The notes under the pieces: generated by a model | What the model saw: the letters and a program-made list of their open reading frames with translations, nothing else | What the model was told of the DNA's origin: nothing | Database searches by the model: none | Program-made: the position numbers and the translations under genes | Assembly (NCBI GenBank): GCA_016703265.1 | Contig: JADJCK010000004.1 | Location: 205,520 to 269,519 of the forward strand | Direction of reading: 5' to 3' | Source: a bacterium | GTDB taxonomy: Bacteria > Krumholzibacteriota > Krumholzibacteriia > LZORAL124-64-63 | Length of the DNA stretch: 64,000 nt | Shown here: positions 16,103 through 50,058 of the stretch, one piece after another | Layout of the letters: every line of letters starts with the position of its first letter | Position numbering within the stretch: the first letter of the stretch is position 1

Positions 16103-16727
16103 GACATTCCTCCGTCTTGAATCGTGGTTTAGGAATCTCGCAGAACCCGCGGCTGGCCGCTTTCTGTGCCCTGCACGTATGTGGAGTCGGGCGGCTGCCA
16201 ATCGTGTGACATGGAACTTGCGGCAGTACTGCGCGCCATCTGGCAGTGTCAACTGGCGGTATGAGCTGGTGGTGCGATCTGGCCGCGCTGGCTCGCGCCG
16301 TCCGCGATTCACTGCACCGAAAGGGAACATGGGACCACGCGCTGTGCGGGCAGCGATGAAGATCCATGAATGTGACCCGACGCGCACCGGGTTCATTGCT
16401 TGTTGAAACTTCAGATCATTGTCGCCAAGGTCAGCGCAATTTGGCCGAATAGAAGTGCCTGAGGGCCCACGGCGACTACGTCACCGGACCATTCAGTACT
16501 GCCGGAGATCGGCGTCGACTTCGCACAAGATCGGGCAGAGCGGCTCCGGATAGGCGCGGGCGGCCGGTCGCGGACGAACCGGATTATGTTGTGAGATCGA
16601 GTTGTACCTCTTGATGGCGAGTGGCTTGATCTTACGTGCGCTTATTTGTGCTATTAGGCACCGCCCTTCCAACTGCAATCCCAATGAAATCGAAGGCGAC
16701 CCGGCGATCGGGGCGTAAGCTCCCCCG

Positions 16728-17555
16728 TCAAGTGGACAGTTCGAAGTTAGAGTTTTCGGCTTCCCATCTCTCCCTGAAGACCGACGGCGGTACCTTGCCA
16801 AGGCTGTCGTGCGGTCGCTCCTCGTTGTAGTCGAGCATCCAGTTCCAAGCCAGCTCCCGCACCTGGTCAAGGTCGTCGAACAGGTATGCGCTGAGCAGTT
16901 CGTCACGGAACGTCTTGTTGAACCTTTCGATGTATGCGTTCTGGTTCGGCTTTCCGGGCTGGATGTACAGGATCTCAACGCCGTTCTGCTCGCACCAGTT
17001 CACAAACGGCTGACTCAGCAGCTCTGGCCCGTTGTCGCACCGGATGGCATCCGGCACGCCGCGCCAGCTCTTGATTACGTCCAGGGTCCGCACGACTCTT
17101 TCGCCGGGCAGCGACGTGTCGATCTCGATCCCCAAGCACTCGCGCACGCCTTCGTCCAGCACATTCATCGTTCGGAAGCAGCGCCCGCAGTACAACGTGT
17201 CGTGCATGAAGTCGAGTGCCCAGATTCGGTTCGGTTCTGCTGGAACAACTAAGGGCTGACGCGGCCGGTCGCCCAGCCGCTTCTTCGTCCGCCGTCGGTG
17301 ATTCATGCCCAGCTCGCAGTACACGCGGTAGATCCGCTTGTGATTCCAGGGCCGACCATCCAGCCGCAGGCGGTCTCGGTACTTCCAGAAGCCGCGACGC
17401 GGGTGCCTCTCTGCCAGGTCCTGCAACGCATCAATGACCTCGGCGTCGCGCACCAATCGATCCTGCGGCGCCTTGTACCAGGCCGAACGCGACAGCCCGA
17501 TCGCGGCGCAGGCACGGCTCACGGAAAATTTCTGCTCGGCCACCGGATACCTCAC
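16728..17555 (-). CDS. IS3-family transposase OrfB (DDE/rve integrase core)
   Basis: 275-aa ORF with the DDE motif context (ALDFMHD...CDNGPE...NAYIERFNKTFRDE). Normally expressed as an OrfAB fusion by -1 frameshifting. Confidence 0.85.
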   Translation of the reverse strand: MRYPVAEQKFSVSRACAAIGLSRSAWYKAPQDRLVRDAEVIDALQDLAERHPRRGFWKYRDRLRLDGRPWNHKRIYRVYCELGMNHRRRTKKRLGDRPRQPLVVPAEPNRIWALDFMHDTLYCGRCFRTMNVLDEGVRECLGIEIDTSLPGERVVRTLDVIKSWRGVPDAIRCDNGPELLSQPFVNWCEQNGVEILYIQPGKPNQNAYIERFNKTFRDELLSAYLFDDLDQVRELAWNWMLDYNEERPHDSLGKVPPSVFRERWEAENSNFELST

Positions 17556-17578
17556 GGCTTCTCTCTGCTCTGGTGGCC

Positions 17579-17844
17579 TCAGAGTTTTTTTGAGATCAAG
17601 TTTTTCAGGCCATCGTTCTCCAGGCTCAAATCGGCGTACATCCGCTTGAGCTTGGCGTTCTCGGCCTCGAGCTCCTTGACTCGCCTCAGCTCAGAAGCAT
17701 CCATGCCCCCGTACTTGGATTTCCAGCGATGGAAGGTCGCGGGGCTAATCCCTGCTTCCGGCAGATGTCCTGGACCTTTAGCCCAGCATCGGCCTCACCC
17801 AAAATCCCGATGATCTGGGTCTCCGTGAAATCGGACTTCTTCAT
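17579..17844 (-). CDS. IS3-family transposase OrfA (HTH), carrying a non-programmed 1-bp frameshift
   Basis: MKKSDFTETQIIGILGEADAGLKVQDICRKQG then a frame break at the CCC run near 17750. The other frame continues ISPATFHRWKSKYGGMDASELRRVKELEAENAKLKRMYADLSLENDGLKNLISKKL and ends at the A7 slippery site. Confidence 0.6.
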
Positions 17845-18288
17845 CAGAACCTCCTGGTCGATTATGCCAGAAAGCTCTACTTCTCAACTGTCTGAATTTT
17901 GGGGGAGCTTACGGGGGCTCTTGCCATGTCTGCAACGATGGTGCTCGGCTCATTTCGGGCGGTTCGTCCACTGCGTATGGTGGTATTGGCCACGAGGTGC
18001 GCTGATGCCAGCTTGCAGAATATCACCTGCAGGTGTGCATATGCGAGACGGCGGTACCCCAGCGCGCGATTGTCGTCATGCACATTTCACCCGGACGCGC
18101 ACCGGGCGTTCGCTGTCTCGCGTGCATCCCGCTGACCGATGTGTATAATCCCGAGCGCTCTGCCGCTGCCCTTTGTGTACCGTAATTGGTGACTTCGTTC
18201 CGGGCATGGGGATTGGCGACAGTGACGAGATCGCCTGCGCGGAGCCAACCTGACGCACGCGCCGCAAACGGGAATCGAGCTGAACGAC

Positions 18289-21162
18289 GTGAACTCCGAA
18301 GACCAGCATTCAAGTGATGATATTCGTGCGGAGTCGACTGCTACCCCGGCCCGTTCCACCAACTATTTTGCGCAGGCCACGCGAGATCTTGGCGTCTCGC
18401 GCAAGGCAACGTTCGATCACGAGCTTCCGGCATCACTATTGTCTGTTCTACATGACTTCACGATCGAGGAGTCCCTTGGGCGGGGCGGTGTCGGCACGGT
18501 ATATGCCGCCTTTCAGGTATCGATGCAACGGCGCGTGGCGATCAAAGTTTTGCATCACAACAGCTTGTCCCACCACTCCCTGCCCGCGCGATTCACACGC
18601 GAGGCCTGGATCGGAGGTCGGCTACATCACCCTTCCATAGTGAAAGTGTTTTCACAGGAAGACTGCGGCGAGTTCCAATGCATCGTCATGGAGATGATCG
18701 ATGGGGGCAACCTTGCCCAATGCGTGGCGACAGCGCGAAACCGCTTTGCGCCTGATGATTTGCCGCCCGCGACGGAGTATCGCGACTACCTGCAGGAGAT
18801 CTTGGTCTACTTCATACAGATCGCCGACGCACTCGACCATATCCACCGACGGGGGATCGTGCACCGGGATATCAAGCCCCACAACATTCTGGTGGATCGT
18901 GCGGCTAGACAGGCGTATCTGACTGACTTTGGAATCGCAATCGAATACGGATCCGATCAACTGACGCGCACCGGCGACTTCCTGGGAACCGTGCAATACA
19001 TGTCGCCAGAGCATCTTGATTCTGGCGGGCGCGCGCTGGATCATCGGGCAGACATCTGGTCGTTCGGCGTGACCCTATATGAGGCCGCCACCTTCACGAC
19101 GCCGTTCGCGGGCGGTGCAACATCGACCATGCGCAGCATCCTGGCCGATAGAAGCCTACCGTCCGCGCGGGCACGCCAGCGACACGTGCCGAGGGACCTC
19201 GAGACAATCCTTACTCGTTGTTTGCAGCCGGAACCTGGCCGACGATATGCGACTGCTGCCGACGTGCGCGACGATCTCCAGCGACTTGTCGATGGCCAAC
19301 CGATCTGTGCGCGGCGACCGAGTCGTTTGGAGCGCGTTGGCCGATATCTAGCTCGCAACCGCAGGCGTTTCATGATGGGCGGAGCCGCGTTCTTGATCGC
19401 AACCGCGGTCGTTGTCAGCGCAATTGATGCTGTTGGCGTTCGGATTCGTGATCATAAGACGAATAGGATCCTGCAACAGGTCATCACGCGGAACTTGCCA
19501 GCCCGCGCCCTCAGCACCAATTGGGACCACCTGGAGGAGCACCTGATGGAGCGCGTGCGCGCGCGCCCACGTGATCCGCTTTCGATACTGGCAAGGCGTG
19601 CTGCAAATGGCGTTGCAGTGCGCGTTGCCGAGTTCGGGCCAGTCCACCACGCGAACGCTGTAATCAGCGGACAGGCCCGCCTTAACCCAGGTATTCAATT
19701 CGACAACATCATTGACCTAGAGGCCTCGTGGGACCGTGGTCCATGGGACCCCGTGGCCGTACTCTATACAAACATGTGGGAATCGACGCGGCTCAACTTG
19801 CCCCTGGCCTCATGGGTGGATCCCAGCCGGATCAAGGAAGGGCCTCACATAATGCGGTTTCGCGCGCACGTACGCTATCTAGACGTGGCCGGGATCGCTA
19901 CCGCTGCGAGAGAGCGCCGGGACTATCGATCATTCGACCCCGAGCATCCGGCTACCGCCTGGCCCGTCGGCGACAGTTTTGATGAGTGGTTAGCCGCCGC
20001 GCGCGAAACGCCGTGTCTATTTGAGGAAGACACCGACCTGGGCGAATTTCCGATAGTGCTCTTAGGTTCGATTCCCGATTCCATACCATCGCCTCTTGAG
20101 ATTACGGAAACTGATGAAGCTCGGGCAACGTGGTTCGCGATCGATGAGCTTGTTGTTACCGGAGTTGCCGTGCCGGCCGGGCCGCCCGCGATGTCGATCG
20201 ACTACGTGTCGGGAAACGGTATCCCTCGGACCGCGGCCTGCCCTCCCGATATCGATGCCGAACCTGGGGGCGAATCGCAGGTGCTGATATGCACAATCGA
20301 GCTGAATGGGCGATTCGAGATCCGGTCCGATCGGGCGCTGGCGTTCGAGGACATCTTGCTGCGTTCGCGTGACGGGGACCTACGTGTGGGCGTTGGATCC
20401 GAACGCTTTGCGGTTGGCTGTGTAGTGGAAGGAGAACTGGCCGGCGCCCAGCATGAAAACGCAGGAGGCTTTCGTTATCTTGATTCGATTGGCGACGGGA
20501 TTCAGAGTGGTTTGCCCGACCAGTCGACACGTGAAGCAACCTTGGGTGACGTCTATACGCGACTGGTGCTGAGGGGACGAACAGCGGTTTCTGCGGCCGC
20601 CTGGGATCGCGCCCGAAACGGCGCCAAGCCAACCTTCGCTGTTCTTCCGAGTCGAGCAGTCGCATCACACCATGTGGATGGGGTATATGGTCCGGCTGGG
20701 GCTATGATGAGCTATGTGGCTGACCAGATCGAATGTGTACCGCGAAAACAGCGGTTCGAGCTTCTTCGTGGCAAGTGGAACGACGATATCGTGGCGTTGA
20801 CGGGTGAGGCCAAATGGTCGCCAGCGGCGTCTTCCGCCGCAGAGTCGTTAACCGTTAGGTACCGAATACTCGACGCCGACTGGGATCGCGCGGACGAGAG
20901 ACTGGAGCTCCACTGGGCTGTCGACAATTGGCGTCGGCCCCAGATCGAACTCGGCCACGGTTGGCGGTGGTCTCCACCCGATTCTGTTGCCGTGATCAGC
21001 CCCATGACCAAGGCGGAGCGCGGTTGGTGGCAAGTCACTGTTCCTCGGCCTCTAGACGCAACCGAACTGGACTTCGTCGTGCGTCTGTTTGATCGTCGCC
21101 GGAACCGAGTTGTACAATGGGACAACAACAACGGCAAGGACTGGCGGGTCGACCTCGACTAG
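18289..21162 (+). CDS. receptor-type Hanks Ser/Thr protein kinase with large C-terminal extracytoplasmic domain
   Basis: Kinase motifs GRGGVGTVY, AIK, HRDIKPHNILV, DFG, SPE. TM helix MMGGAAFLIATAVVVSAI. About 580 aa of unassigned C-terminal domain. Confidence 0.8.
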   Translation: MNSEDQHSSDDIRAESTATPARSTNYFAQATRDLGVSRKATFDHELPASLLSVLHDFTIEESLGRGGVGTVYAAFQVSMQRRVAIKVLHHNSLSHHSLPARFTREAWIGGRLHHPSIVKVFSQEDCGEFQCIVMEMIDGGNLAQCVATARNRFAPDDLPPATEYRDYLQEILVYFIQIADALDHIHRRGIVHRDIKPHNILVDRAARQAYLTDFGIAIEYGSDQLTRTGDFLGTVQYMSPEHLDSGGRALDHRADIWSFGVTLYEAATFTTPFAGGATSTMRSILADRSLPSARARQRHVPRDLETILTRCLQPEPGRRYATAADVRDDLQRLVDGQPICARRPSRLERVGRYLARNRRRFMMGGAAFLIATAVVVSAIDAVGVRIRDHKTNRILQQVITRNLPARALSTNWDHLEEHLMERVRARPRDPLSILARRAANGVAVRVAEFGPVHHANAVISGQARLNPGIQFDNIIDLEASWDRGPWDPVAVLYTNMWESTRLNLPLASWVDPSRIKEGPHIMRFRAHVRYLDVAGIATAARERRDYRSFDPEHPATAWPVGDSFDEWLAAARETPCLFEEDTDLGEFPIVLLGSIPDSIPSPLEITETDEARATWFAIDELVVTGVAVPAGPPAMSIDYVSGNGIPRTAACPPDIDAEPGGESQVLICTIELNGRFEIRSDRALAFEDILLRSRDGDLRVGVGSERFAVGCVVEGELAGAQHENAGGFRYLDSIGDGIQSGLPDQSTREATLGDVYTRLVLRGRTAVSAAAWDRARNGAKPTFAVLPSRAVASHHVDGVYGPAGAMMSYVADQIECVPRKQRFELLRGKWNDDIVALTGEAKWSPAASSAAESLTVRYRILDADWDRADERLELHWAVDNWRRPQIELGHGWRWSPPDSVAVISPMTKAERGWWQVTVPRPLDATELDFVVRLFDRRRNRVVQWDNNNGKDWRVDLD

Positions 21163-21248: not shown

Positions 21249-21446
21249 CTATCGGACCAGCAAATGGTCCAGGTACTCCCACATGAGTGTCGCGACATCC
21301 GACGGTGCCTGACGAGTCAACCCGGCCTTGAACTCTTCGTGTTCTTTCCGGTACATGCGCAGGTGCGATTGGTTTTCGGCGGTGGCAGCCTCTACGTTCG
21401 CAATCCGGTCGGCCAGCTTGAGGATCACGGCCAATTCGTCTTCCCT
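21249..21446 (-). pseudogene. HD-domain protein, C-terminal part (continues 24050..24378 once the IS and one TSD copy are removed)
   Basis: Joining the flanks gives the in-frame reading ...YAKTREDELAVILKLADRIANVEAATAENQ... (KLADRLxN motif of RelA/SpoT HD domains). Confidence 0.7.
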
Positions 21447-21562
21447 TGCGTATTCCAGTGATTTCGGCCACCCGTTCGATCGATTCCGGCCGCGCAGTCC
21501 AGTCCATTCCGGCCACCTGTTCCGACGTATTCGGCCACCGCCGGGCGTAGCGACGGGGATCT

Positions 21563-22220
21563 CATTCGCCCGCCTCCGCAGTCGCGGTCAACGTTTCTCC
21601 TTTCTTTTGCGGGGACTCGCCCGTCAACTCGATCTTGTGCGCGTTGTGGATCCCGGTCCAGGATCGCGTCAGCCAGCGTTGGGTCATCCAGGTACTGGTG
21701 CGGTGCTGACCGGCAGTTGGCTCGTGATCAGGGTCGACCGCGTCTGGTAACGGTCATCGGGCTCGAGCAGGTCCCGCCGGTTCTCTGGCGTCAGTGGCGC
21801 CAGTCCCCAGTCATCGAGCACCAGCAGGTCGGCGCGTGCGAGCTTGGCCAACCGCTTCCGGTAGCTGCCGTCGGCCTTGGCGATCTCCAGATCGTGGCAC
21901 AGCCGCGGCAGGCGCTGGTACGTGACCCGCTGCCCGTGACGGCATGCCTGCTGCGCCAGCGCGCAGCCGAGGTACGTCTTGCCGACGCCGGTCGGTCCGG
22001 TGATCACCACGTTCAGATTCTCCCTGATCCATTGGCACGACGCCAGGGCTCAACACCAGCGTCTTGCTCAGCCCGCGACGACTGCGGTAGTCGATGTCCT
22101 CCGTGCACGCCGGCAGGCGGCGCGCCTGCGTCAGGCGGGTCTTCAGTCGGCGGTTCTCGCGGGCGGCCTCTTCCCGATCGACCAGCAGCCCCAGCCGATC
22201 CTCCGAAGCTCAGGCTGGAT
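21563..22220 (-). pseudogene. istB: istB (IS21 helper ATPase), frameshifted
   Basis: Fragments MVITGPTGVGKTYLG (Walker A), LLVLDDWG, and DPTLADAILDR...IHNAHKIELTGES in a shifted frame (extra G near 21690). Confidence 0.65.
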
Positions 22221-23796
22221 GCGTCCGGGGTCTGCAGCTGGTCGACCAAGGCGTCGGCCATCCCGCCCAGTGCAGGTCGCGCAGCTTCTCCACCGTCGGA
22301 TGGATCAACATGGGCGACCTCCGCGGCGGGAACGGCAGCACGGGCGCGAGTAGTCGGCGCCCGGATGTTCTCGTGCTCGATCGACGGTGTCGGCGGCACT
22401 GGCGACGGCAGCGGCTGCTGGTCCAGGCCGCTCTTGAGGATCGACCCCGCTCTTGCAGCTGCACGCGCCGGTCGCCAGTGCGCGCTCGCAGGCCGCTTCC
22501 AGACGAGCATTTCCGTACTGCTCGCGTCGTATCACGCCCAGGCACGAACGGTAGCCTTGCTGGGGATGGGGCCGGCTCGCGATGATCCGCGTCGCCACCG
22601 CCGCCACCGCGCCACCAGCCTCGCCAGCCCAGCGCACCACTCGCTCCGGCGTCCACTCGGCGTGCTGCCGATGGTGCTCTGGCTGTTCGGGCAGCGTAGC
22701 GGCCCTGCAAGTGGCTGCGCGTGGCTCGCCACCGACGGCCGCGATGCAGCACCTCTACCGTCGACGCCGTCACCCGCGCCTCGCAGCGAAGGCCCACCAG
22801 TTGATGCGGCACCGAGTAGTAGTGCTTGTCCACCGCACGTGGTAGTCGATGCACCTTCACGCGCGGCCATTCGGCGTACTCGTACGGCGAACACGGCAAT
22901 GGCCTGAGCGCCGGCCGATCCAGTTCTTCCCACAGACTGCGCCGACTCGGCCGGTTTCTGGAACCGCTTGTTGTCCAGCGCTTCCAGCAGTTCCGTGATC
23001 GCACGGTTCAGCTCGGCCAACGAGAAGAACGTCCGGTGCCTCAGCTGGCAGGATCCAGCGCTGGCCACTGACCCCGGCCTCGACCTTCGCCTTGTCCTTC
23101 GGGCGGCATACCCGCGCCGGCAGCCGCCACCTCGTAGTGACTGGCCATCTCGGTACGTCGGGTTCAGGTCGGCTCGTGAGGGTGCGGGCTCGTCACCCGG
23201 CTTGAGATTGTCCGGCACCAGCACCTGCGGCACGCCGCCCAGGTAATGCAACGCCCGCACATGGGACGCAATCCAGTCCGGCAGCTTCTGCGTCCACGTC
23301 GCTTCCGCAGTACGTGTAGTTGCTCGCACCAAGCACGGCGACGAACAGGGCCTGCCGGATCTCGCCGGTCAACCGGTCCACCACCGGCACCTGGGCCCGC
23401 GTAGTCGACGAACAGTTTCTCGCCCGCGCGGTGCGTCTGCCGCATACCAGGGTCCTGACGACGGCCACTGGCCGTACAACTCGCAGAACCGGCTGTACTG
23501 GTGACCTTCCGGATGCGCCTCCTTGTGTTTCCTGCCGGCAGGGAACAGCGTCACGCCCTTGTGCCGCTTCAGCTCCAGATGCAACTGTGCCCGTTCGGCT
23601 GCGGCCGCTGATCGGCCGGCAGCGACGACGGCGGCGGGAACAGCAGCGACTCCAGCGCCGCGTCATCCAGATCCTCGGCCAACGGCCATGTCAGACCCGC
23701 CGCCTCCGCCAGCCGCAGATATTCCGCCACCGTGCTACGCGCGATGCCGCAGCTGTGGGCGATGGCCCGGCTGCTCAGGCCGCAGCCTCTTTTCAA
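22210..23796 (-). pseudogene. istA: istA (IS21 transposase), multiply frameshifted
   Basis: Fragments in three frames: HTH (SRAIAHSCGIARSTVAEYLR), the DDE region (GEKLFVDYAG) and HVRALHYLGGVPQVLVPDNLK. Confidence 0.65.
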
Positions 23797-24049
23797 ACGC
23801 AGGACTTCTTTGATCTTTCGCTGGACAACCGCTCTCTGGGCACCTCGGCTCCCTCTACTCGGCGTGTCGCGGTTAGAAGCGCGGTACCCGCTGGGGTGTC
23901 CTGCGTCGCGGTCGGCGTCTACCCTGCCAGGGGGGCCGAATTGCGTCGGAATCGGTGGCCGGTTTCGGTCGGAATGGGTGGCCGAATTGAATCGGAATGG
24001 GTGGCCGATTTGCGTCGGAATCAGTGGCCGATTTCAGTTGGAATACGCA

Positions 24050-24378
24050 TCCCTCGTCTTGGCATAGGTGGCCCGCTTCCTCGCCGCCCGGTTCGCTCCC
24101 GGTTCATCCGTGACGCGCCACACCAGATCTGCGACAGCTTCGCCGAACCGGGAGGCCAGTTCGCTGCGCGTGATCACAGTGTCTTCGAGGCTGTCATGAA
24201 GCCAGGCGGCCACGACAACGGGCGCCGACCATGGTTGCCCAGGAATCACGCCGAACCGCTCCAGGGTATCAACCACGGCCTGCAGATGATCCGTATATGG
24301 ACGCTCACCGTATTGTTGCCCGCTGTGCAGTTCGAAAGCCAACAGTTTGGCTGCGACGAGTCCCTGATCTCCGACCAT
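24050..24378 (-). pseudogene. HD-domain (p)ppGpp-hydrolase-like protein, N-terminal part, interrupted by IS21
   Basis: MVGDQGLVAAKLLAFELHSGQQYGERPYTDHLQAVV...AAWLHDSLEDT (SpoT-type HD motif). The reading frame runs into the IS terminus. Confidence 0.7.
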
Positions 24379-24422
24379 GTGACGCCGTTCCCTATCGCCG
24401 AGGCCCCGGCCTCGCGGGCTGT

Positions 24423-27400
24423 CTAGGAAGCCCCCAGGCTGATCGTCGTCCTGGCGGACCGATCATCCGTTTCGGTGCCATCCCAGATGTGGTGGCCCTC
24501 CCATTCCGCTCCCGCACGCTTGCGGCTCTGGATGGTAACCTGGTTCCGCGGCACATCGATAGTCAGAAGCTGATACGATTGAGGGATGCCTGGCGGCAGA
24601 GCCCGGCTGCGGGCACTGAAACTGCCCGTCGCCAGGAAGTAGACCCGCTGCCGGGTCAACAGATCCATGGCCCCGGCACGATCGCGGTGGATGTGGCCGT
24701 GCAGCCCAAGGCGTGTCCCCAGGGCGCGCAGGTGCCCAGCGAACTGCTCCTCGTCGCGAAAGTCCGCGAGGGGATGATGCCAGACTCCGATTGTCAGCAG
24801 GTCGCCGCTGGAATCGTCCAGCAGCCGCCCCTTCGATCCCACCAATACGTCATCGTGCACCCTTACGTCGTCGGCATGGCAGCGGTCAATGTGCCATGAG
24901 GAATTGTATGCGATGAAGCGCAGACCGATCTGGGGATAGGCGTGCAGGCGAACCTGATCTTTATAGGCCAGCGGATAGGGCTCGCCGTAGACCAGCCGAT
25001 GCAATCGGTGCGAGTACGGCCGAAAGCGATTCGGATAGAAGCCCGCGTCTTTCTTGGTCGGTTCGCAGCCGACCTGCTGCGGGCAATGCCCCAGGTCTGC
25101 CAGGGCCTTGAGGTCGTCCGGCGTGACGTGGCAACAGGTAGCCGCCTCCCAGTCGACGTCGTGGTTCCCGGGTACGACAACCCAGCGCTCGCGCGGCACG
25201 CCCATCCGCTCTTCTAGCATGCGCAGGAACGCATAGACGGAGGCGTACTCGTCCATCGCCGCGGTATCCGCAAGGTCTCCGGTGACGACAACCGAATCCA
25301 AACGCTCGATCTTCAGCCGGTGCTTCAGATCGAACACGAGATCGACCACAAGCTTCCGGATGTTTTCACCGCCGCGGAAGTGCAGATCGCTCAGGTGAAG
25401 GACATGTGCCGGTGCGCGACCGGGTGCAGAACGCTGCGGGATTTCGCACGCTGGGGCTGTTTCGTGCCGGTAATCGACGTCGTGCAGGGCCGCCGCCATT
25501 TCCGGAAGCTCCCAGATCTGGATCTCGCGGCTGCCGTTTGTCGGAACCGCCAGCCCGCCACCGGCGGGATTGAACGACAGACAGCCGCCCGGTTCGTGGT
25601 AGTGCGTGGCATCCATCGCGAGCGAGCCGTCCGCGAGCAGCGAGCCGTCGCGCCACCCCCACAACCGGCAGTGACCGCTGCGGTCAAGCGTCAGCAGGCG
25701 GGAACCGTCCGGCGACAGGCAGAGGCGTACCACGGCGCCTTCCGGCTGAGTCCAGCGGCCACGGTACCGCCGCTCCCTGACGTCCCAGATGCCAATGCGC
25801 CCGTCGTCGCCGCCGGAGATGACAAAGCGGCCCTCTGGCGTCCAGACGACGTCATTGACCGCTTCCAGGTGTCCGGCCGTGATATCGACGAGATCGTTGT
25901 CGACCACGGACCAGATCCTGACGGTTCCGTCGGCTGCGGCCGATGCCAGTTCGTGCCCCGAAGCAGACCACGCCAATGCCCGGACCGGCGCATGATGACG
26001 TCCAAGCGGCGACGAGCGGAGCCGGCAAGCGCCGGGTGTCCGCGTCCACAAGGTAACGGACCCATCGGCGGATCCGCTCGCGAAGGCATCTTCATTGGGC
26101 GCCGCAGCCAGCGCTCCGACACGGCCGTGGCCGGTCTCCAATACGGCCCGGCGCGCCCAGTCCGGCCCATCGAACCTGATGACGCGGCCACGATCGACGG
26201 CCACGATCAGCCCCAGACCATCGGCAGTGCCCGTGACTGCCGTGACATGTCCGTCGATCCGGGCGGTGGCCAGGCAGCGGCGCGCCGTCAAGCTCCATTT
26301 CTCGACTTCTCCGTCCGCGTTGATCAGCGCCAGATGTCGGCCGTCTGGAGTCCAGACAGTGTGGCTGAACCTGCCGCTCCGGCAACCGAGACGCATCACG
26401 CCTTCCGGGTCCACGCGCAGAACCCGAGCCAGTTCGTTCATGGCGTCACCGTTCGCGTCGTCACGGTCGCTGCGCGGATCTCGCGCGGTTCCGGTCTCGC
26501 TGGTCCTGATCATCCATGAGGTAAGCGGTGCAGGCTCGTCCATGCTCGCCGTCCGAACCGGGTCTCCTGCTCCGGCCCGGTCGTGACCACACAAGGCCTG
26601 GAGCTGTGCATGGCGCCGGGCAATTGTGTCGAGAGAAGCACTGTTCATCACATCGGCCAGGGTTGGGGCCACCTTCTCGACGGCGCGTCGCGCGAGTGCA
26701 ACCAGGGCCACTTCGTTACGATCAAGAATCTGCAGCAGCACCGGGTCCAGACGATGGTCAGCTGGACCCTGCGCGATGCCATCGGCGAAGCCGGCGCGGC
26801 GCGCCAGCGCGTCAGCGATCTGGACGACCCCTGCCAAGTCCCAGCGATTCCAACCCTGTACATGGTGCTCAAACGGATCGTGGTGCCCCGCGATGGCACT
26901 GACGGTCTCGGCGGCCAGGTGCGACAACTCGAGCACCTGCGCGGCAACGATGGCGTGGTCTGCTGCGCTCCCGTCCGCCTGGCGCAGGTGACGACGTTCT
27001 CCGTCCTGCGTTGTCAGACCCTCGCCCTGGCAGGTGATCGCCACATGGCGGTAGATGTCTCCGCCGTGCCGGATCAGCAACAACTTGCCGAAATCGTGCA
27101 GGAGCCCCGCCAGGCGAGCCTGTTCGGCGAAAGCTCGATTGCGATGTTCGCCCAGATCATGCGCCAGCTCAGCGACGATCAGGCTGTGGGCGAGCAGATG
27201 GTCCGCGAGCGCGCCCGCCCTGCCGGCCAGATGGCACAGGCCCTGACGCAGCGCACAGTAGTTGACGACGTCGCGCCCCAGACGTGTCACGGCCGTCGGC
27301 AGATCGCTGATCGTGCGCCCGGAGGTTCCGTAGAAGGCGCTGTTGGCGCGGCGCATGATCACGGTGGTCAGATCGGGATCGTTGGCCACGGCTCTGGCCA

Positions 27401-27593
27401 GGCGCCGGTTGTCACTGCACTCGGCTTGGCGCAGCTCCTCAAGCACTACCGCCAACGCCCCGGGCAATGACGCCCGGGCCAGGTTGGGAAGGTCGGGCAC
27501 ATCCACGATGTGGAACAGGTCGGGCTCGCCGGCCGCGCTGGCGGGCTCGTGCTCGATCGTGAGTGCTTCGGCGGTAGTGAATACCAGGCCCAT
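24423..27593 (-). CDS. HDOD domain / WD40 beta-propeller / calcineurin-like metallophosphoesterase fusion protein (1056 aa)
   Basis: N-terminal HDOD (NSAFYG...AVTRLG...AGLLHDFGKLLL). At least four WD repeats (GSADGSVTLWT, AAADGTVRIWSV, GGDDGRIGIWDV). C-terminal metallophosphoesterase motifs (LHLSDLHF, VVTGDLAD, VPGNHD, GHIH). Confidence 0.8.
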   Translation of the reverse strand: MGLVFTTAEALTIEHEPASAAGEPDLFHIVDVPDLPNLARASLPGALAVVLEELRQAECSDNRRLARAVANDPDLTTVIMRRANSAFYGTSGRTISDLPTAVTRLGRDVVNYCALRQGLCHLAGRAGALADHLLAHSLIVAELAHDLGEHRNRAFAEQARLAGLLHDFGKLLLIRHGGDIYRHVAITCQGEGLTTQDGERRHLRQADGSAADHAIVAAQVLELSHLAAETVSAIAGHHDPFEHHVQGWNRWDLAGVVQIADALARRAGFADGIAQGPADHRLDPVLLQILDRNEVALVALARRAVEKVAPTLADVMNSASLDTIARRHAQLQALCGHDRAGAGDPVRTASMDEPAPLTSWMIRTSETGTARDPRSDRDDANGDAMNELARVLRVDPEGVMRLGCRSGRFSHTVWTPDGRHLALINADGEVEKWSLTARRCLATARIDGHVTAVTGTADGLGLIVAVDRGRVIRFDGPDWARRAVLETGHGRVGALAAAPNEDAFASGSADGSVTLWTRTPGACRLRSSPLGRHHAPVRALAWSASGHELASAAADGTVRIWSVVDNDLVDITAGHLEAVNDVVWTPEGRFVISGGDDGRIGIWDVRERRYRGRWTQPEGAVVRLCLSPDGSRLLTLDRSGHCRLWGWRDGSLLADGSLAMDATHYHEPGGCLSFNPAGGGLAVPTNGSREIQIWELPEMAAALHDVDYRHETAPACEIPQRSAPGRAPAHVLHLSDLHFRGGENIRKLVVDLVFDLKHRLKIERLDSVVVTGDLADTAAMDEYASVYAFLRMLEERMGVPRERWVVVPGNHDVDWEAATCCHVTPDDLKALADLGHCPQQVGCEPTKKDAGFYPNRFRPYSHRLHRLVYGEPYPLAYKDQVRLHAYPQIGLRFIAYNSSWHIDRCHADDVRVHDDVLVGSKGRLLDDSSGDLLTIGVWHHPLADFRDEEQFAGHLRALGTRLGLHGHIHRDRAGAMDLLTRQRVYFLATGSFSARSRALPPGIPQSYQLLTIDVPRNQVTIQSRKRAGAEWEGHHIWDGTETDDRSARTTISLGAS

Positions 27594-27806: not shown

Positions 27807-28574
27807 TTAACAATCCTCCCGGATAAATCGCTCGAGGAATGCCTCGTAGGCCCCCTTCATCGGCAGCCCCAGATCGACGCATAGACCGCGTCCCGAAGCT
27901 CGGGCCCCCGTACCATCTGCGTCGGAGACCGTTGACGATTGATTGCCTTCCCAGTAGACACCAATGCCGCGGCGCTGCCAGGCCGGCAGGTCATTGAAAT
28001 TGATGCCGGCCCGCTCATACAACAGGTCGTTCTTGGCGGCAGTCGACATCCCCGCGAGCTGAGTCGCAGACTCGGCCGGGGTCCGGCCCTCCCGTCGCAA
28101 CTGCCAATAGCAGTGTCCGTTCAGTGCATTGCGGTGGGCGTCATCGGCGCGCCAGCGGAAGTAGCTCAGGACGCGCGCCCGGTCGGGCAACTGGGCGATC
28201 CGGGCGTCGAACGCCGCGGGTATCCCCAATCGGTGGGTAAACCACGCGCTGGCTTCGCCGGCCAGGATCGATTCGTACTTACGAAGCTTGCGGCCAAAGG
28301 CGTCTTCGTCGCGGTCCAAAAGCAACGAGATCTCATCGCTCTGCGTGTATGCATAGACGACGCGAAATCCGCACGACATCAGGTGCTTGGTCGTCTCGAC
28401 CATGTGGTCGCGAAATGATTCGTCATACGGTGCGGTGAAACAACACACTTCGCGTGTCAGGCGGGTGAAGTTGCGGCCATCGATCCGCACTACAATGTGC
28501 AGGCCTGGCAGGACACAATGGTCGTGCGCGGTTTCGAAGATCCGCATCGCGGTATCAAGATCCGTGAACCTCAT
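27807..28574 (-). CDS. tRNA(His) guanylyltransferase Thg1-like protein (3'-5' polymerase)
   Basis: ATG at 28574. HIVVRIDGRNFTRL and AYTQSDEISLLL match Thg1 catalytic motifs. Confidence 0.8.
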   Translation of the reverse strand: MRFTDLDTAMRIFETAHDHCVLPGLHIVVRIDGRNFTRLTREVCCFTAPYDESFRDHMVETTKHLMSCGFRVVYAYTQSDEISLLLDRDEDAFGRKLRKYESILAGEASAWFTHRLGIPAAFDARIAQLPDRARVLSYFRWRADDAHRNALNGHCYWQLRREGRTPAESATQLAGMSTAAKNDLLYERAGINFNDLPAWQRRGIGVYWEGNQSSTVSDADGTGARASGRGLCVDLGLPMKGAYEAFLERFIREDC

Positions 28575-29013
28575 CGCGCCACTCCTCGACTGCGAAGCCA
28601 CCCCTCGGCACCTGTGAGACATACCATAGTTGCGTGAAACCCTCGGCAAGGCTTGGCAGCCTCAGCCGCCCAGCCGTGCCCCGGACGGCCGCGTCCGGCA
28701 CGCGTTCAGGGCCGGAACGGAGCCGGTTGCGCTCCAGACAATCGGTGACCACGCTTCGGAAATAGTACCCCACAACCTCGTAACCCGCGGCCAGAGCCGG
28801 CACGATAAAGCGCGCGCGTTCCGCGATGCTCGCATTCGTGTTGTCGACGACAAAAGGCCGACGCTCGAGGATACATGCCTCCAACAGCGTCGCTTCGCGA
28901 CGTCTCGTGCGCAGCGAGTCGAGATTCAAGCGCACGTGGGTGTCGGCGAAGCGCTGCTGGCAGAACGTCGACTTTCCGGCAGCGGGAAGGCCGATGAGAA
29001 TAACTGCATGCAT
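28555..29013 (-). CDS. P-loop kinase (polynucleotide-kinase-like) partnered with the Thg1-like gene
   Basis: Walker A GLPAAGKST at the N-terminus. 152 aa. 20-nt overlap with the downstream Thg1-like start. Confidence 0.6.
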   Translation of the reverse strand: MHAVILIGLPAAGKSTFCQQRFADTHVRLNLDSLRTRRREATLLEACILERRPFVVDNTNASIAERARFIVPALAAGYEVVGYYFRSVVTDCLERNRLRSGPERVPDAAVRGTAGRLRLPSLAEGFTQLWYVSQVPRGGFAVEEWRDEVHGS

Positions 29014-34831: not shown

Positions 34832-34908
34832 GGGCCCGTAGCTCAGTTGGATAGAGCGCCTGGTTCCGAACCAGGAGGCCGGGGGTTCGAGCCCCTCTGG
34901 GCCCACCA
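34832..34908 (+). tRNA. tRNA-Arg (anticodon CCG), CCA encoded
   Basis: Cloverleaf read by eye: acceptor GGGCCCG/TGGGCCC, D arm GCTC-AGTTGGATA-GAGC, anticodon arm CCTGG-TTCCGAA-CCAGG, T arm GGGGG-TTCGAGC-CCCTC, discriminator A plus CCA. Confidence 0.85.
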
Positions 34909-34912
34909 GATC

Positions 34913-34992
34913 GCGAGCCTGTATGCTCAACTGGATAGAGCGCCTGATTACGAATCAGGAGGTTGGGGGTTCGAGCCCCTCCAGGCTCGCCA
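34913..34992 (+). tRNA. tRNA-Arg (anticodon ACG), CCA encoded; one-nucleotide irregularity at the acceptor/D-arm junction
   Basis: Anticodon arm CCTGA-TTACGAA-TCAGG, D arm GCTC-AACTGGATA-GAGC, T arm GGGGG-TTCGAGC-CCCTC, acceptor 3' strand CAGGCTC-G-CCA. The 5' side (GCGAGCCTGTAT) has one extra nucleotide relative to a canonical 7+2 layout. Confidence 0.7.
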
Positions 34993-46216: not shown

Positions 46217-46560
46217 CACCCGCCAGCGACGGAGGTCACGATCCCCTTGGCATAGTGATCGAAGGCGCGAAGTTCCTTGACGGCGTGCTGGAGTAGGCCG
46301 CCGGGCAAGAGGTCATACACAACACATGGCCATTGCTCTAAATGACACGTGGTCACCCCGCGTCGTCGGCCACACTCCAGCCGACGCCTTTGACTGTGAT
46401 GTCCTCGGCGAACTATCACGAACGCCGCGCAAACTGGACTGTCACACGCCCGTAGTCGCAGCGACAAACATCGCTGTTGGCGCTGAGGCCGCACACCGGC
46501 CACGCAGCCAGATCGAGCAGATCATCGCGGGGCAACGAGATCAAACAGGGAGCACGAGAC

Positions 46561-46830
46561 ATGAGACAGGATGCAATGCGCAGGCTGAAGTTCGGAATGA
46601 TTTGGCTGGTCGGGGGGATCATTGTGACCGTCGGTTCCTTTGCGGTTGCCGAGGACGGCGGCAGCTACGTCGTGGCTTGGGGAGCCATCGCCTGGGGAGT
46701 GATCCAGGTGCTGCGCGGGCTGGTGGGTATCGCCAGGTCATCGCGCGAGCACGCCGACCCGTCTGTGGGTGGCATCGTGGGATCAGCGGTTTCCGCCGGC
46801 TTCGAGCGCGCCAAGAGGGGCGACGACTGA
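46561..46830 (+). CDS. small two-helix membrane protein
   Basis: ATG at 46561 after GGGAG. IWLVGGIIVTVGSFAVA and WGAIAWGVIQVL hydrophobic helices. Confidence 0.4.
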   Translation: MRQDAMRRLKFGMIWLVGGIIVTVGSFAVAEDGGSYVVAWGAIAWGVIQVLRGLVGIARSSREHADPSVGGIVGSAVSAGFERAKRGDD

Positions 46831-47070
46831 TTCCGAGCGTGAATCCTCCCCTGATCGCGCTGAACGCCGCGGGGATTGAGCCACAAGATGAGTGCCCCGC
46901 CGTGATTCACCGTGTCCATCGCCAACCCCTCGCGATAGCCCTCTGACACCCCCTGAATGTATCCCCCACCTGGGCGCCGTATCCGCCCTGCGCGGCTCGT
47001 CTAATGCACCACGGGCACCTGCTCAAGTTCGAATGAAGGAGTTCGCGGCTGAAGGAGGCCGCGGCCCGGG

Positions 47071-47099
47071 TTGCAAACCGCGGCACGCGTGCCTAGAAT
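47071..47099 (+). promoter_or_regulatory. near-consensus sigma70 promoter TTGCAA-N17-TAGAAT
   Basis: TTGCAA at 47071-47076, 17-nt spacer, TAGAAT at 47094-47099. About 150-nt GC-rich leader before the ORF at 47259. Confidence 0.45.
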
Positions 47100-47258
47100 G
47101 CGACCGTCCAGTCGGGGCCGGGTGGAGGAAGTTGACCTGGCCACAGGTAGGGGACGTTGGGGTGGCCGCCGGGGGCGGCGGTCATCGGGCCAGAATCGGT
47201 GTCAGAAAGCGACTATTAGCTGGAGCGGTTCTTCGTCTCAATCAGGTGACGACCGACA

Positions 47259-47558
47259 ATGACCTTTGACTCCCTGTATTCCAGATTCGCCTGGCAACCT
47301 ATTCGCGATTGCCCCGGCCGGTTCGTCTTGCGCGGGGTCACGGCGACCGTTGGGCTTGTGGATCTGCTTGACGAGACGATGGTCGCTCGGCGTTTTGATT
47401 CGGTGCATGCGAAGGATGCCGTCTGGGTCGCTCGGTTCGACGATGGCGGGGTGATTTCGTATCAGCGAGGCGATGGGACCTGGCTGCACACGCTCTGCAC
47501 GCCGGCGGGACTTGAGCGCAAGCTAAGGCAGCTAGAAATCCCCTACAGCGACTCTTGA
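47259..47558 (+). CDS. hypothetical protein (99 aa)
   Basis: ATG with AGGTGA Shine-Dalgarno. Confidence 0.5.
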   Translation: MTFDSLYSRFAWQPIRDCPGRFVLRGVTATVGLVDLLDETMVARRFDSVHAKDAVWVARFDDGGVISYQRGDGTWLHTLCTPAGLERKLRQLEIPYSDS

Positions 47559-47634
47559 TCTTGCCGGCGCGCGGCGCCATGAAAAATGGTGGCGGCAATG
47601 CGGCTCCAAGGCATGCTTACAGAAATGCGCCCCC

Positions 47635-48165
47635 TCAACCTGGTTTCGCCTCCAAGAGCTGTCCGACCTTCTCTATCAGCACGGCAACGTCATTTCTGGC
47701 ATGTTCAATGAATTCCAGATCGGAAGCACGCGCATCCCCAACAAATAGATCTATTGCGTAACCAACTCCGGGAGTGATTGCGTAGAGAACCTCGCCCTCG
47801 TCAGGGTGGGCGGGATCAGGAATGTGAATAGCCCACGGGTTAGTGCTTGCTGACTTGTATCTCTCAGTGATCTCCATCAACTCGGACTTGGTCATGGAAA
47901 TTTCTTTGAACTGAGAAAGAAGCCTAGGTATATCACTGCGCGCCGCCACGATGAAGTGCAAGTCCTCGCCGGGTCCCCCGGGGATTTCAATATAGTCACC
48001 AGTCGTGGGTTTTCCCGGCTTGTGTCCAACGACAATGGTGCTGGTATGACTGTCGGACGGGCCTTCGGGTTTGGCCCACCAGGGCAACTTCGTCGCAGCA
48101 CCGCAGCGACAGGCGATCTCCAGAAGAACTGGATCGTTCATTGCGCATCTCTTGTCAGATTGCAT
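47635..48165 (-). CDS. hypothetical protein (176 aa)
   Basis: ORF with coding-like composition, abutting the IS3 remnant. Confidence 0.45.
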   Translation of the reverse strand: MQSDKRCAMNDPVLLEIACRCGAATKLPWWAKPEGPSDSHTSTIVVGHKPGKPTTGDYIEIPGGPGEDLHFIVAARSDIPRLLSQFKEISMTKSELMEITERYKSASTNPWAIHIPDPAHPDEGEVLYAITPGVGYAIDLFVGDARASDLEFIEHARNDVAVLIEKVGQLLEAKPG

Positions 48166-48185
48166 TGTGCCTCCAATTGTCCCAG

Positions 48186-48325
48186 ATCTTCATCACGGCA
48201 TCGGCCTCACCCAGAATCCCAATGATCTGAGTCTCTGTGATCTCGGACGTCCTCATCGGAACCTCCTGGCTGCAGTACGCCAAGAAGCTCCGCTTCTCAA
48301 CTGTCTGGATTCGGGGGCAGCTTAC
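48186..48325 (-). mobile_element. solo remnant of the IS3-family element (terminal ~140 bp: IR plus first ~25 codons of orfA)
   Basis: Roughly 85% identical by eye to 17775..17913, including ...CTTCTCAACTGTCTGGATTCGGGGGCAGCTTACG and MRTSEITETQIIGILGEADA. Diverges after 48190. Confidence 0.6.
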
Positions 48326-48596
48326 GCTGGCACTCACAACCTATTGTCGACGCGACGGCAAGTGGGTGACACAGATCTCGCAGCCCAACACCTTGCTTCA
48401 GTGGCGGGTGCGGTTGGCGCAGGCACTGCTTTGCGCAGCCCGTTGCAACCGTGACCATCAGCCGCAAACAGAAGTTTCGGCGCCGGTCCCCGACCGGAAA
48501 AGCCAACCCGCCCCGCTCCCACCCGCGCGGCCACGTGCAATCTCAACTGTTTGGCGGTGCTGGACACCGCCTAGTCACGTTTCTGGCTGCTGAGAA

Positions 48597-48929
48597 TCAC
48601 CTCGCGGGCGCAATGGTGTAGATGGCCACGAAGTCAGGATCGACCAGAACTTCGCCAGTAGTTCGAAGATGATACTCCCCCGGCGTGGCCACATGAATGG
48701 CTGATGTATCGGGTGGCAGATTGAACTGCTCGCCCTCTCTCATTCCCTCCAGGCCCAGCAGGATTCCTTCGCGACTGTGCGCTCGCAGAACTCGGCCATA
48801 AAACTGCCCCTGCTTCTTGATCTCCCCGTTCTCTTCGAGAAACGTAAGGCCGACGAGTACTACCGAGCCAGTGAGAGACTGGGCGAATTCCTCGTTCCAT
48901 GGTGTTTCGTCCGGTCGTGAATCAGTCAT
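48597..48929 (-). CDS. hypothetical protein (110 aa)
   Basis: ORF only. Confidence 0.45.
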   Translation of the reverse strand: MTDSRPDETPWNEEFAQSLTGSVVLVGLTFLEENGEIKKQGQFYGRVLRAHSREGILLGLEGMREGEQFNLPPDTSAIHVATPGEYHLRTTGEVLVDPDFVAIYTIAPAR

Positions 48930-48954
48930 TCACTTCTCCTCAAAAGTTGTGTCC

Positions 48955-49050
48955 AGACGGCGTGGAGCAGCTGCCCAGCGCCGGCTTCAGCAGCGAAGAC
49001 GACTGGCGTTGGCCGTGTGCATACACGGACCGTGACCGGCGGCTTCGTCT
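48955..49050 (+). repeat. intergenic repeat copy A (GCTTCAGCAGCGAAGACGACTGGCG ... TCTGCTGCAAG)
   Basis: Shares a 25/26-bp core and a downstream TCTGCTGCA(A/G)G box with 50100..50190. Confidence 0.5.
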
Positions 49051-49293
49051 GCTGCAAGATCCGGCCAGGTGCCATCCACCGTCGCGATTCATGGCCCTCG
49101 CGACCTGCCATCGCCAGGACGCCTCTTCCTTCCGGGCAAGCCGTACTCGTGAAGCATACTCGCTGGCAGCACCGTTCCAAGATTCGGCAGCGCAGAAGAG
49201 AGCGCCGCGCATCCGCGTTCTCGATGTGTATGCGCACGACGCTATTGGCTGCTGCAAATCTGCTCAGAGATCGCGCTTTCGGAGTATCCAGCC

Positions 49294-50058
49294 TCATCTC
49301 GGAAGAGCCCCTTCAAGCTCCACCCGAAGCGGCCACCGACCCTGCAGCTTACCCGCCTCCAAGTAGTCGTGGTGGAAGTAGCTGATGACCCATGCCGCTG
49401 AGCCGGGAAGTAGCGGTAGCAGCACACAGTCCGAGTTGGGGTTGCAAAGAAGAATGTCGGCCCAGCGGTCACGAAGCGTCGCGCTTTCGATCAACGCCGC
49501 CATCGATTCGTACTCCCAGAGAGCGACTGCATACTCATCCGCAGAACCGGTCAGCAACGTCTCGACGGCGACCTTCGCTATCGGCGCTTCCGTCGCCTCC
49601 GGCCACCGCCCCGAGTACACCAGCTCGAACCGGCCCGTGTCGAGTTGGGGTGCCCAGGGAGCCCACGCCACTTGCGCCTCATGTGCCCAATCCGTGACAA
49701 GCGCTCGCGCCTCCGCATCCAAGATCCACGCACTCTCCGTCACATGCGCGAGTCCGAGATTTTCGAGAGCACTCCGATCGCTGGTAAGGTGCCGGCCCAA
49801 CATGCGGAAGAGTGCGGGAGCGCCGCGGCATTCGCAATGCGCGATGCAGTACTCTCCAAAAGGGGAGCGCCTGATCGCAGGCGGAAGGCCTTGCGTCCAA
49901 AGGCGCAGTTCGTCAACCGTGCGCAACTCGGCCAGACGCGCGCCGAACCCCGCTGGTTGCCAGCGACGATCATCAGAGCCAATTGCCCGGACCAAATGGT
50001 CCCATCGACGCACGACCGCGTCTCTCAAGTCCTTGTCAAACATGTCACCATTACTCAT
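49294..50058 (-). CDS. hypothetical protein
   Basis: ORF 49294..50094; ATG at 50058 (MSNGDMFDKDL). Confidence 0.45.
   Translation of the reverse strand: MSNGDMFDKDLRDAVVRRWDHLVRAIGSDDRRWQPAGFGARLAELRTVDELRLWTQGLPPAIRRSPFGEYCIAHCECRGAPALFRMLGRHLTSDRSALENLGLAHVTESAWILDAEARALVTDWAHEAQVAWAPWAPQLDTGRFELVYSGRWPEATEAPIAKVAVETLLTGSADEYAVALWEYESMAALIESATLRDRWADILLCNPNSDCVLLPLLPGSAAWVISYFHHDYLEAGKLQGRWPLRVELEGALPR

Follow-up and report, generated by a model that had tools for sequence, protein, structure and literature searches.

A probably recent IS21-family insertion splits an HD_4 gene in a Krumholzibacteriota genome, with broken transposase genes best explained as consensus error

How can an insertion sequence (IS) with pristine ends enclose genes that appear decayed? 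This question is raised by a 64-kb stretch of a Krumholzibacteriota genome (contig JADJCK010000004.1, assembly GCA_016703265.1; the whole stretch analysed is referred to here as the window), in which an IS21-family element at 21447..24049 lies inside a gene for an HD-domain protein, called the HD_4 gene below after its Pfam domain. The original prediction, made from the same DNA, read a recent event from the intact ends and the target duplication of the element, and at the same time saw several frameshifts in istA and istB, its two genes. We consider it highly probable that a recent-type IS21 insertion in the HD_4 gene is combined with consensus errors of a long-read assembly, which would account for the small insertions and deletions (indels) in the interior of the element. 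The apparent contradiction between recency and gene decay would then exist only because of this consensus artefact.

Perfect ends and a 5-bp target duplication bound the element

As written in the window, the element is 2,603 bp long and carries istA and istB, both on the minus strand; its true length is probably about 2,670 bp. Its terminal inverted repeats (TIRs) have the form TG...CA and are identical at 11 of 11 positions in inverted orientation. The TIR at the istA-proximal end (24039..24049, minus strand) reads 5'-TGCGTATTCCA in the orientation of the IS, and the one at the istB-distal end (21447..21457, plus strand) gives TGCGTATTCCA when read inward. This exact 11-mer occurs in the 64-kb window at the two ends of the element only. 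Immediately outside the TIRs, a direct check of the sequence finds TCCCT on both sides, at 21442..21446 and at 24050..24054. By chance, five flanking nucleotides would match with a probability of ~1/1024, and three related insertions in other assemblies are likewise flanked by perfect 5-bp target-site duplications (TSDs; GCCTG, GCCTT and CCGGG). TCCCT is thus not coincidental but the footprint that this IS group normally leaves. The span, the TG-starting inverted repeats and the TCCCT flanks had all been proposed in the original prediction, and each of them checks out to the base.

Further inward, both ends of the element contain arrays of repeats. Four to five tandem 23-nt units occupy 23930..24044 (minus strand; direct repeat family D1), and their core, AATCGGCCACCCATTCCGA, has four matches where 0.04 are expected by chance. 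At the opposite end, 21461..21545 (plus strand) holds repeats with TTCGGCCACC cores (D2 and the inverted pairs I1, I6, I12 and I17), which are inverted relative to the set at 23930..24044. The 23-nt subterminal repeats are presumed to be binding sites of the transposase IstA. The G+C content is 0.66-0.69 within the element and about 0.58-0.63 in the flanks, a rise that fits foreign DNA.

The interrupted gene encodes a predicted single-domain HD_4 hydrolase

The element divides the HD_4 gene, which runs on the minus strand, into a 5' part at 24050..24378 (codons 1-109; GenBank MBK6734079.1) and a 3' part at 21249..21446 (codons 110-173 and the stop codon) that carries the invariant KLADRIAN motif. 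Removal of the IS gives the empty-site sequence ...CAATTCGTCTTCCCTCGTCTTGGCATAGG..., and joining minus-strand positions 24378..24055 to 21446..21249 yields one 173-codon open reading frame (ORF) with its stop at the end, whose product contains both ...AAWLHDSLEDT... and ...YAKTREDELAVILKLADRIANVE.... In line with the original prediction, the two halves thus still read in frame, and the joined protein is of the SpoT type: it matches Pfam HD_4 (PF13328) at 44.5 bits (cut-off 27.2; residues 14-143), retains all catalytic residues and also matches the hydrolase part of the spoT_relA model. Within its 173 amino acids, this domain is the single match, without synthetase or regulatory domains.

When we searched a collection of 5.8 billion proteins with the joined ORF, 235 homologues were returned. 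The top one, P0001 (114 aa, 99% identity), is this locus's own truncated ORF, and the next ones are intact proteins of 175-185 aa with at most 59% identity and 94-100% query coverage. Far from failing to align with intact HD-domain orthologues, the joined protein is collinear with 13 of them and gap-free at the junction (...YAKT-REDELAVILKLADRIANVE...). The resulting alignment of 14 sequences has 45 invariant columns, which lie on both sides of the junction and include H31, H61-D62, E65-D66 and K118-L-A-D121-R-I-A-N125. In Mesh1 and Lmo0812, the corresponding motifs fall at the same aligned positions.

Searched against the PDB, a profile of the subfamily finds Lmo0812, fly and human Mesh1, small alarmone hydrolases (SAHs) and Rel/SpoT hydrolases with E-values from 1.7e-20 to ~1e-11; pairwise single-sequence matches to solved Mesh1 and SAH proteins are weak (E 8e-9 to 1e-3). 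Mesh1-type and small alarmone hydrolases (3NR1 and 5VXA, human HDDC3/MESH1; 3NQW, Drosophila CG11900; the SAH structures 6YVC and 6Z3N/6Z3O; 4YF1, Listeria Lmo0812) likewise consist of a single HD_4 domain of ~175 aa and have the same order of motifs, H...HD..ED...(K)LADR..N; for this group, the E-values of the profile matches run from 1.7e-20 to ~1e-12. The loop that precedes the first histidine (Q-x-Y-G-x-x-P-Y) differs, however, in that it is one residue shorter here than in Rel and Mesh1 and lacks their conserved arginine. By sequence, the fold family is unambiguous, and the interrupted gene is a RelA/SpoT-type single-domain HD hydrolase that resembles the small alarmone hydrolases.

The insertion point, between codons 109 and 110, lies eight codons before the KLADRIAN motif, and the insertion splits the N-terminal metal-binding and catalytic residues (H31, H61-D62 and E65-D66) from the C-terminal motif with D121 and N125. 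MBK6734079.1 (24034-24378, 114 aa) consequently keeps the HD and ED motifs and is without D121 and N125. If, as we assume, what is known of the Rel and Mesh1 active sites applies here, the loss of these two residues in the 114-aa product should abolish activity, and the putative hydrolase would have been inactivated by the insertion. In GenBank, the product is annotated as 'HD domain-containing protein', although the IS supplies its five C-terminal residues (DAYSN) as well as the stop codon.

The element is classed as an unnamed IS21 isoform

Membership of the IS21 family, as originally proposed, is borne out by the presence of istA and istB, by matches to family models, and by the TIRs, the subterminal repeats and the short TSD. 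In three-frame translation, istA (helix-turn-helix and DDE transposase) extends over 22305..23843 and istB (AAA+ helper ATPase) over 21562..22311, both on the minus strand and both broken as written, and the start of istB overlaps the stop of istA in ATGTTGA (22311..22305). The pieces match the NCBIfam models NF033546 (IS21 family transposase) and NF038214 (IstB helper ATPase); the broken IstA fragments score below the NF033546 cut-off, and a 121-aa IstB fragment reaches 131 bits on NF038214. IstA from a second contig with the same insertion (L001, described below) scores 310 bits on NF033546 (cut-off 160) and contains rve and Mu-transpos_C_2 domains. An IstB_IS21 domain is present as well, and IstB of the closest intact relative scores 271 bits on NF038214 (cut-off 200). 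Along its entire length, the window element shares 87.5% identity with an intact element of 2,670 bp in contig L002, in which istA (338-1921) and istB (1915-2673) have the same overlapping arrangement.

This organization is typical of the IS21 family, including ISSpu5 of Marinobacter/Shewanella and ISPre4 of Pseudomonas resinovorans: istA is followed by an overlapping istB, the TIRs are of the form 5'-TG...CA-3', several subterminal repeats occupy both ends, the target duplication is short (4-8 bp in the family, 5 bp in TCCCT) and the length is ~2.6-2.7 kb. Among annotated plasmids, ISSpu5 and ISPre4 are the nearest named elements, but their IstA proteins are only about 59-60% identical to the one encoded here, and for this reason we class the element as an unnamed IS21 isoform. 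Intact IstA proteins at 92-93% identity were found only in unannotated metagenome contigs. A 26-nt IS-end pattern, used to look for further copies of the exact isoform in Joint Genome Institute (JGI) metagenome contigs, gave 0 matches, and the IS end, when used to scan genomes, matched nothing but a related isoform at 83-87% identity, present in two other assemblies.

Intact IS copies that are 99.6% identical to each other lie at 130-2799 of L002 (ENA k141_690952) and at 3466-6135 of L004 (CAIOLW010000080.1). The two contigs have the right flank GCCTGCCGACAGACA in common and differ in their left flanks, and a perfect GCCTG duplication is present in L004 and absent from L002. L002 is probably a chimera or a recombinant across IS copies.

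The pattern of frameshifts resembles consensus error

Upon comparison with the intact element of L002 and L004, the window copy displays 48 indels, 42 of them deletions and 6 insertions, with a net change of -67 nt; about 30 in istA and about 7 in istB break the reading frame. An independent view of the same insertion is offered by contig JAHZTJ010592930.1 (L001; 1,992 nt) from a separate metagenome assembly, GCA_020051655.1, which also encodes the truncated homologue P0001 and aligns to 24724..22760 of the window. Its first 791 nt, which run through 675 nt of flank and across the junction into the IS for another 116 nt, are 100% identical to the window. From position 23933 of the window inward, the remaining 1.2 kb contain 33 indel events and 8 substitutions. 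In 27 of these indels, 1-3 nt are missing from the window, and in the other 6 the window has extra bases. Were the 41 differences spread evenly, the chance that none would fall within the first 791 nt would be ~1e-9. One deletion takes the T from the istA ATG (23822) in the window. The IstA frame of L001, by contrast, is open through all 369 codons, to the end of the contig. The several frameshifts of the original prediction are thus present in the DNA as written, and in far larger number, but do not hold up as biology, given the uninterrupted IstA of L001. A search for a contig with the other junction, by exact look-up with the 61-aa C-terminal ORF, returned nothing on record.

Natural decay produces far more substitutions than indels. 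Here, the ratio of indels to substitutions is ~4:1, the differences begin at a sharp boundary ~100 nt inside the repeat, the ends and the TSD are perfect, and the split target is undamaged, which together argue against natural decay and match the result of incomplete polishing of a long-read consensus in a repeat. The flanking single-copy genes are intact as well (957 and 1,056 aa).

The same kind of noise appears in JADJIV01 (metagenome-assembled genome, MAG, Ejby_18-Q3-R6-50_BAT3C.246), in which three copies of a related isoform differ mostly by indels: 110 gap openings and 68 mismatches separate copies L003 and L006, and 25 gap openings and 13 mismatches separate L003 and L005. Between L002 and L004 there are 11 mismatches but not a single gap, and the indel noise is absent in three other assemblies, one of them a megahit-style k141 contig. 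The nearby accession numbers of the window proteins (MBK6734076-80, from a 548,398-bp contig of a MAG) and of JADJIV01 protein MBK6900624.1, which fall in the same range, suggest that the window and JADJIV01 come from the same submission. The MAG set of JADJIV01 was assembled from Nanopore reads with CANU, followed by racon, medaka and then Illumina racon --include-unpolished, so that unpolished sequence is kept (PMC8012365), and a second report describes short-read polishing as needed for indel correction in Nanopore R9.4.1 metagenome assemblies (PMC9262707).

As in Nanopore R9.4.1 repeats, the errors in the window are deletion-biased, 1-3 nt in length and confined to the multi-copy element, with clean unique flanks, and copy-to-copy differences are mostly indels. 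The window differs from a polished consensus in its high error density (about 18-27 events/kb) and in that many events lie outside long homopolymers. Part of this density may stem from diverged IS variants that were piled up together.

In the sequence of events that we propose, a copy of the unnamed IS21-family element would have transposed into codon 109/110 of the 173-codon HD_4 gene and left the 5-bp duplication that is usual for insertions of this group. The ~48 interior indels would be consensus errors of a long-read MAG, probably from Nanopore R9 data, as the multi-copy IS repeat would have been beyond correction by short-read polishing. Unique flanking sequence and the outermost ~116 nt of the element, on the other hand, would have been polished because they could be reached by reads anchored in unique sequence. 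Most likely, the real element would be an intact, transposition-competent IS of ~2.67 kb. The insertion itself is genuine, and it is probably recent; its recency, already claimed in the original prediction, gains from the perfect TIRs, the perfect TSD, the undamaged split ORF and the 100% identity of the flank to L001.

A second repeat in the window also contains a frameshift. An IS3-family element of about 1.2 kb at 16714-17913 (minus strand; imperfect TIRs around CGTAAGCTCCCCC) is made up of orfA (17844..17582) and orfB (rve; 17555..16728); an A7 site for programmed frameshifting lies at ~17590. At ~17750, orfA has a non-programmed frameshift, in which a G is missing from a G-run (CAGGGATT versus the expected CAGGGGATT), and the addition of one G results in a full-length match to HTH_Tnp_1 (1-75 of 75). 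The missing G is probably a further consensus error of this kind, at a homopolymer and again in a repeat.

Alternative explanations

Several points weigh against a recent insertion with consensus errors. A short-read assembler could have extended L001 out of unique flanking sequence and into a consensus built from other, intact IS copies, and for this reason L001 is not strict proof that this particular copy is intact. Rather, it is the error-like mutation spectrum, as we read it from the alignments, that carries the argument for an artefact, and not L001 alone. The window contains one copy of the IS isoform, so that we infer its multi-copy status in the genome, as we infer the sequencing technology of the window's source assembly. 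The label of the target gene is affected too, in that (p)ppGpp is a putative substrate.

Were the frameshifts real, the element would be an old, non-autonomous IS21 relic, with decayed genes and with ends and a TSD preserved by chance. The roughly 37 frame-breaking indels in istA and istB as written would suit such a relic, as would the deletion bias that bacterial pseudogenes generally have. However, 33 indels against 8 substitutions relative to a contig with the identical junction are not what such a history would leave, and the 100% identity of the flank and the first 116 nt to that contig argues against a long divergence time. Recency is also indicated by the perfect TIRs and TSD and by the undamaged halves of the target ORF, and the same copy-specific noise is found in a documented Nanopore MAG, JADJIV01. 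We therefore regard a relic as quite improbable. Indels could also be real without being old if a copy-specific, deletion-biased host defence had introduced 1-3-nt deletions throughout the interior of the IS soon after insertion, thereby inactivating it, and spared its ends and flanks, with L001 being a chimera with other copies; this we find scarcely credible. A further concern is that IS elements are classic sites of assembly chimeras, and L002, which shares its right flank with L004 and has a different left flank and no TSD, suggests that chimeras do arise for this IS. The repeat might thus have been spliced into the contig at misassembled junctions, and the IS might not truly lie inside the HD gene. 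Yet the istA-side junction is common, base for base, to two separate assemblies, and a random splice would give neither an exact 5-bp duplication nor a full-length ORF collinear with its orthologues. Together, the shared junction, the duplication and the rejoined gene make misassembly very unlikely.

A polymorphic insertion, for which the MAG consensus would represent the occupied allele while part of the population retains an intact hydrolase, is compatible with the consensus-error explanation. A MAG is a population consensus, and an insertion that is recent and has perfect ends need not have reached fixation. However, apart from the truncated ORF, the search of 5.8 billion proteins with the joined ORF found nothing above 59% identity and hence no intact allele, and an exact 24-nt flank pattern, used to look for the empty site, had 0 matches in JGI metagenome contigs. 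Both negatives are absence of evidence only, and we consider polymorphism unlikely.

With recent insertion and consensus error as the preferred explanation, the locus is one more IS21-family insertion, which would knock out an accessory single-domain alarmone-hydrolase-like gene of an uncultured bacterium whose habitat is probably activated sludge; at most, it serves as a marker of recent IS activity and as a natural knockout of an HD_4 gene. The insertion is ordinary, and decayed genes within pristine ends are its sole surprising feature, one that is best explained as consensus error. In long-read MAGs, 'decayed' IS copies and pseudogenised transposases can be products of unpolished repeats. 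Because such repeats mimic decay, counts of degraded mobile elements and pseudogenes from these assemblies are unsafe without read-level checks.

Genomic neighbourhood of the HD_4 gene

Upstream of the HD_4 gene and on the same strand lies a gene for a 1,056-aa protein (24423..27593, minus strand), an unusual fusion of an HDOD domain (with a degenerate HD), a WD40 beta-propeller and a calcineurin-like metallophosphoesterase that forms a singleton cluster in the protein collection. Its stop codon is separated from the HD_4 start by 44 nt (24379-24422). This spacer has neither a consensus promoter nor a consensus terminator, and the hairpin that it can form is no more stable than those of shuffled sequence (z = 0.89). 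The HD_4 gene had been described in the original prediction as the distal gene of an HDOD-WD40-phosphoesterase operon. It is indeed the last gene on its strand, followed after 87 nt by the convergent gene for a 957-aa Ser/Thr kinase, and for this reason no polar effect of the insertion on downstream genes is expected. The operon, on the other hand, amounts to a shared strand and a 44-nt gap, and the linkage is not conserved: at four loci that carry three of the closest orthologues (L007-L010), the neighbours are unrelated (for example GH30, PAS/GGDEF and hypothetical proteins) and HDOD linkage is missing. We accordingly rejected a conserved operon, and the unrelated neighbours indicate that the arrangement is local and not a conserved module.

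The product of the convergent Ser/Thr protein kinase gene (18289-21162, plus strand) has a long C-terminal extension and a weak CBM53-like match. Just upstream of the HDOD gene, a gene for a Thg1-like protein of the tRNA-His guanylyltransferase family (27807-29013, minus strand; Thg1 and Thg1C domains) overlaps the end of a gene for an AAA_33 kinase-like protein, and the two may form an RNA 5'-end repair pair. PADLOC matched neither the HD protein nor the Thg1-like protein nor the AAA_33 kinase; its strong PD-T4-6 matches to the Ser/Thr kinase cover the generic kinase domain only, and the PADLOC matches of the metallophosphoesterase domain are generic as well. On these grounds, a reading of the locus as a defence system was rejected. 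A structured RNA or regulatory element was likewise rejected, with no Rfam match in 15-31 kb of the window, neither promoter nor terminator in the spacer, and a fold no better than those of shuffles.

Elsewhere in the window, 46300-49400 has only short ORFs, of about 100-200 aa and distributed over both strands, and lacks an obvious long gene, and two adjacent tRNA-Arg genes, with the anticodons CCG and ACG, lie 6 nt apart at 34832-34992 on the plus strand.

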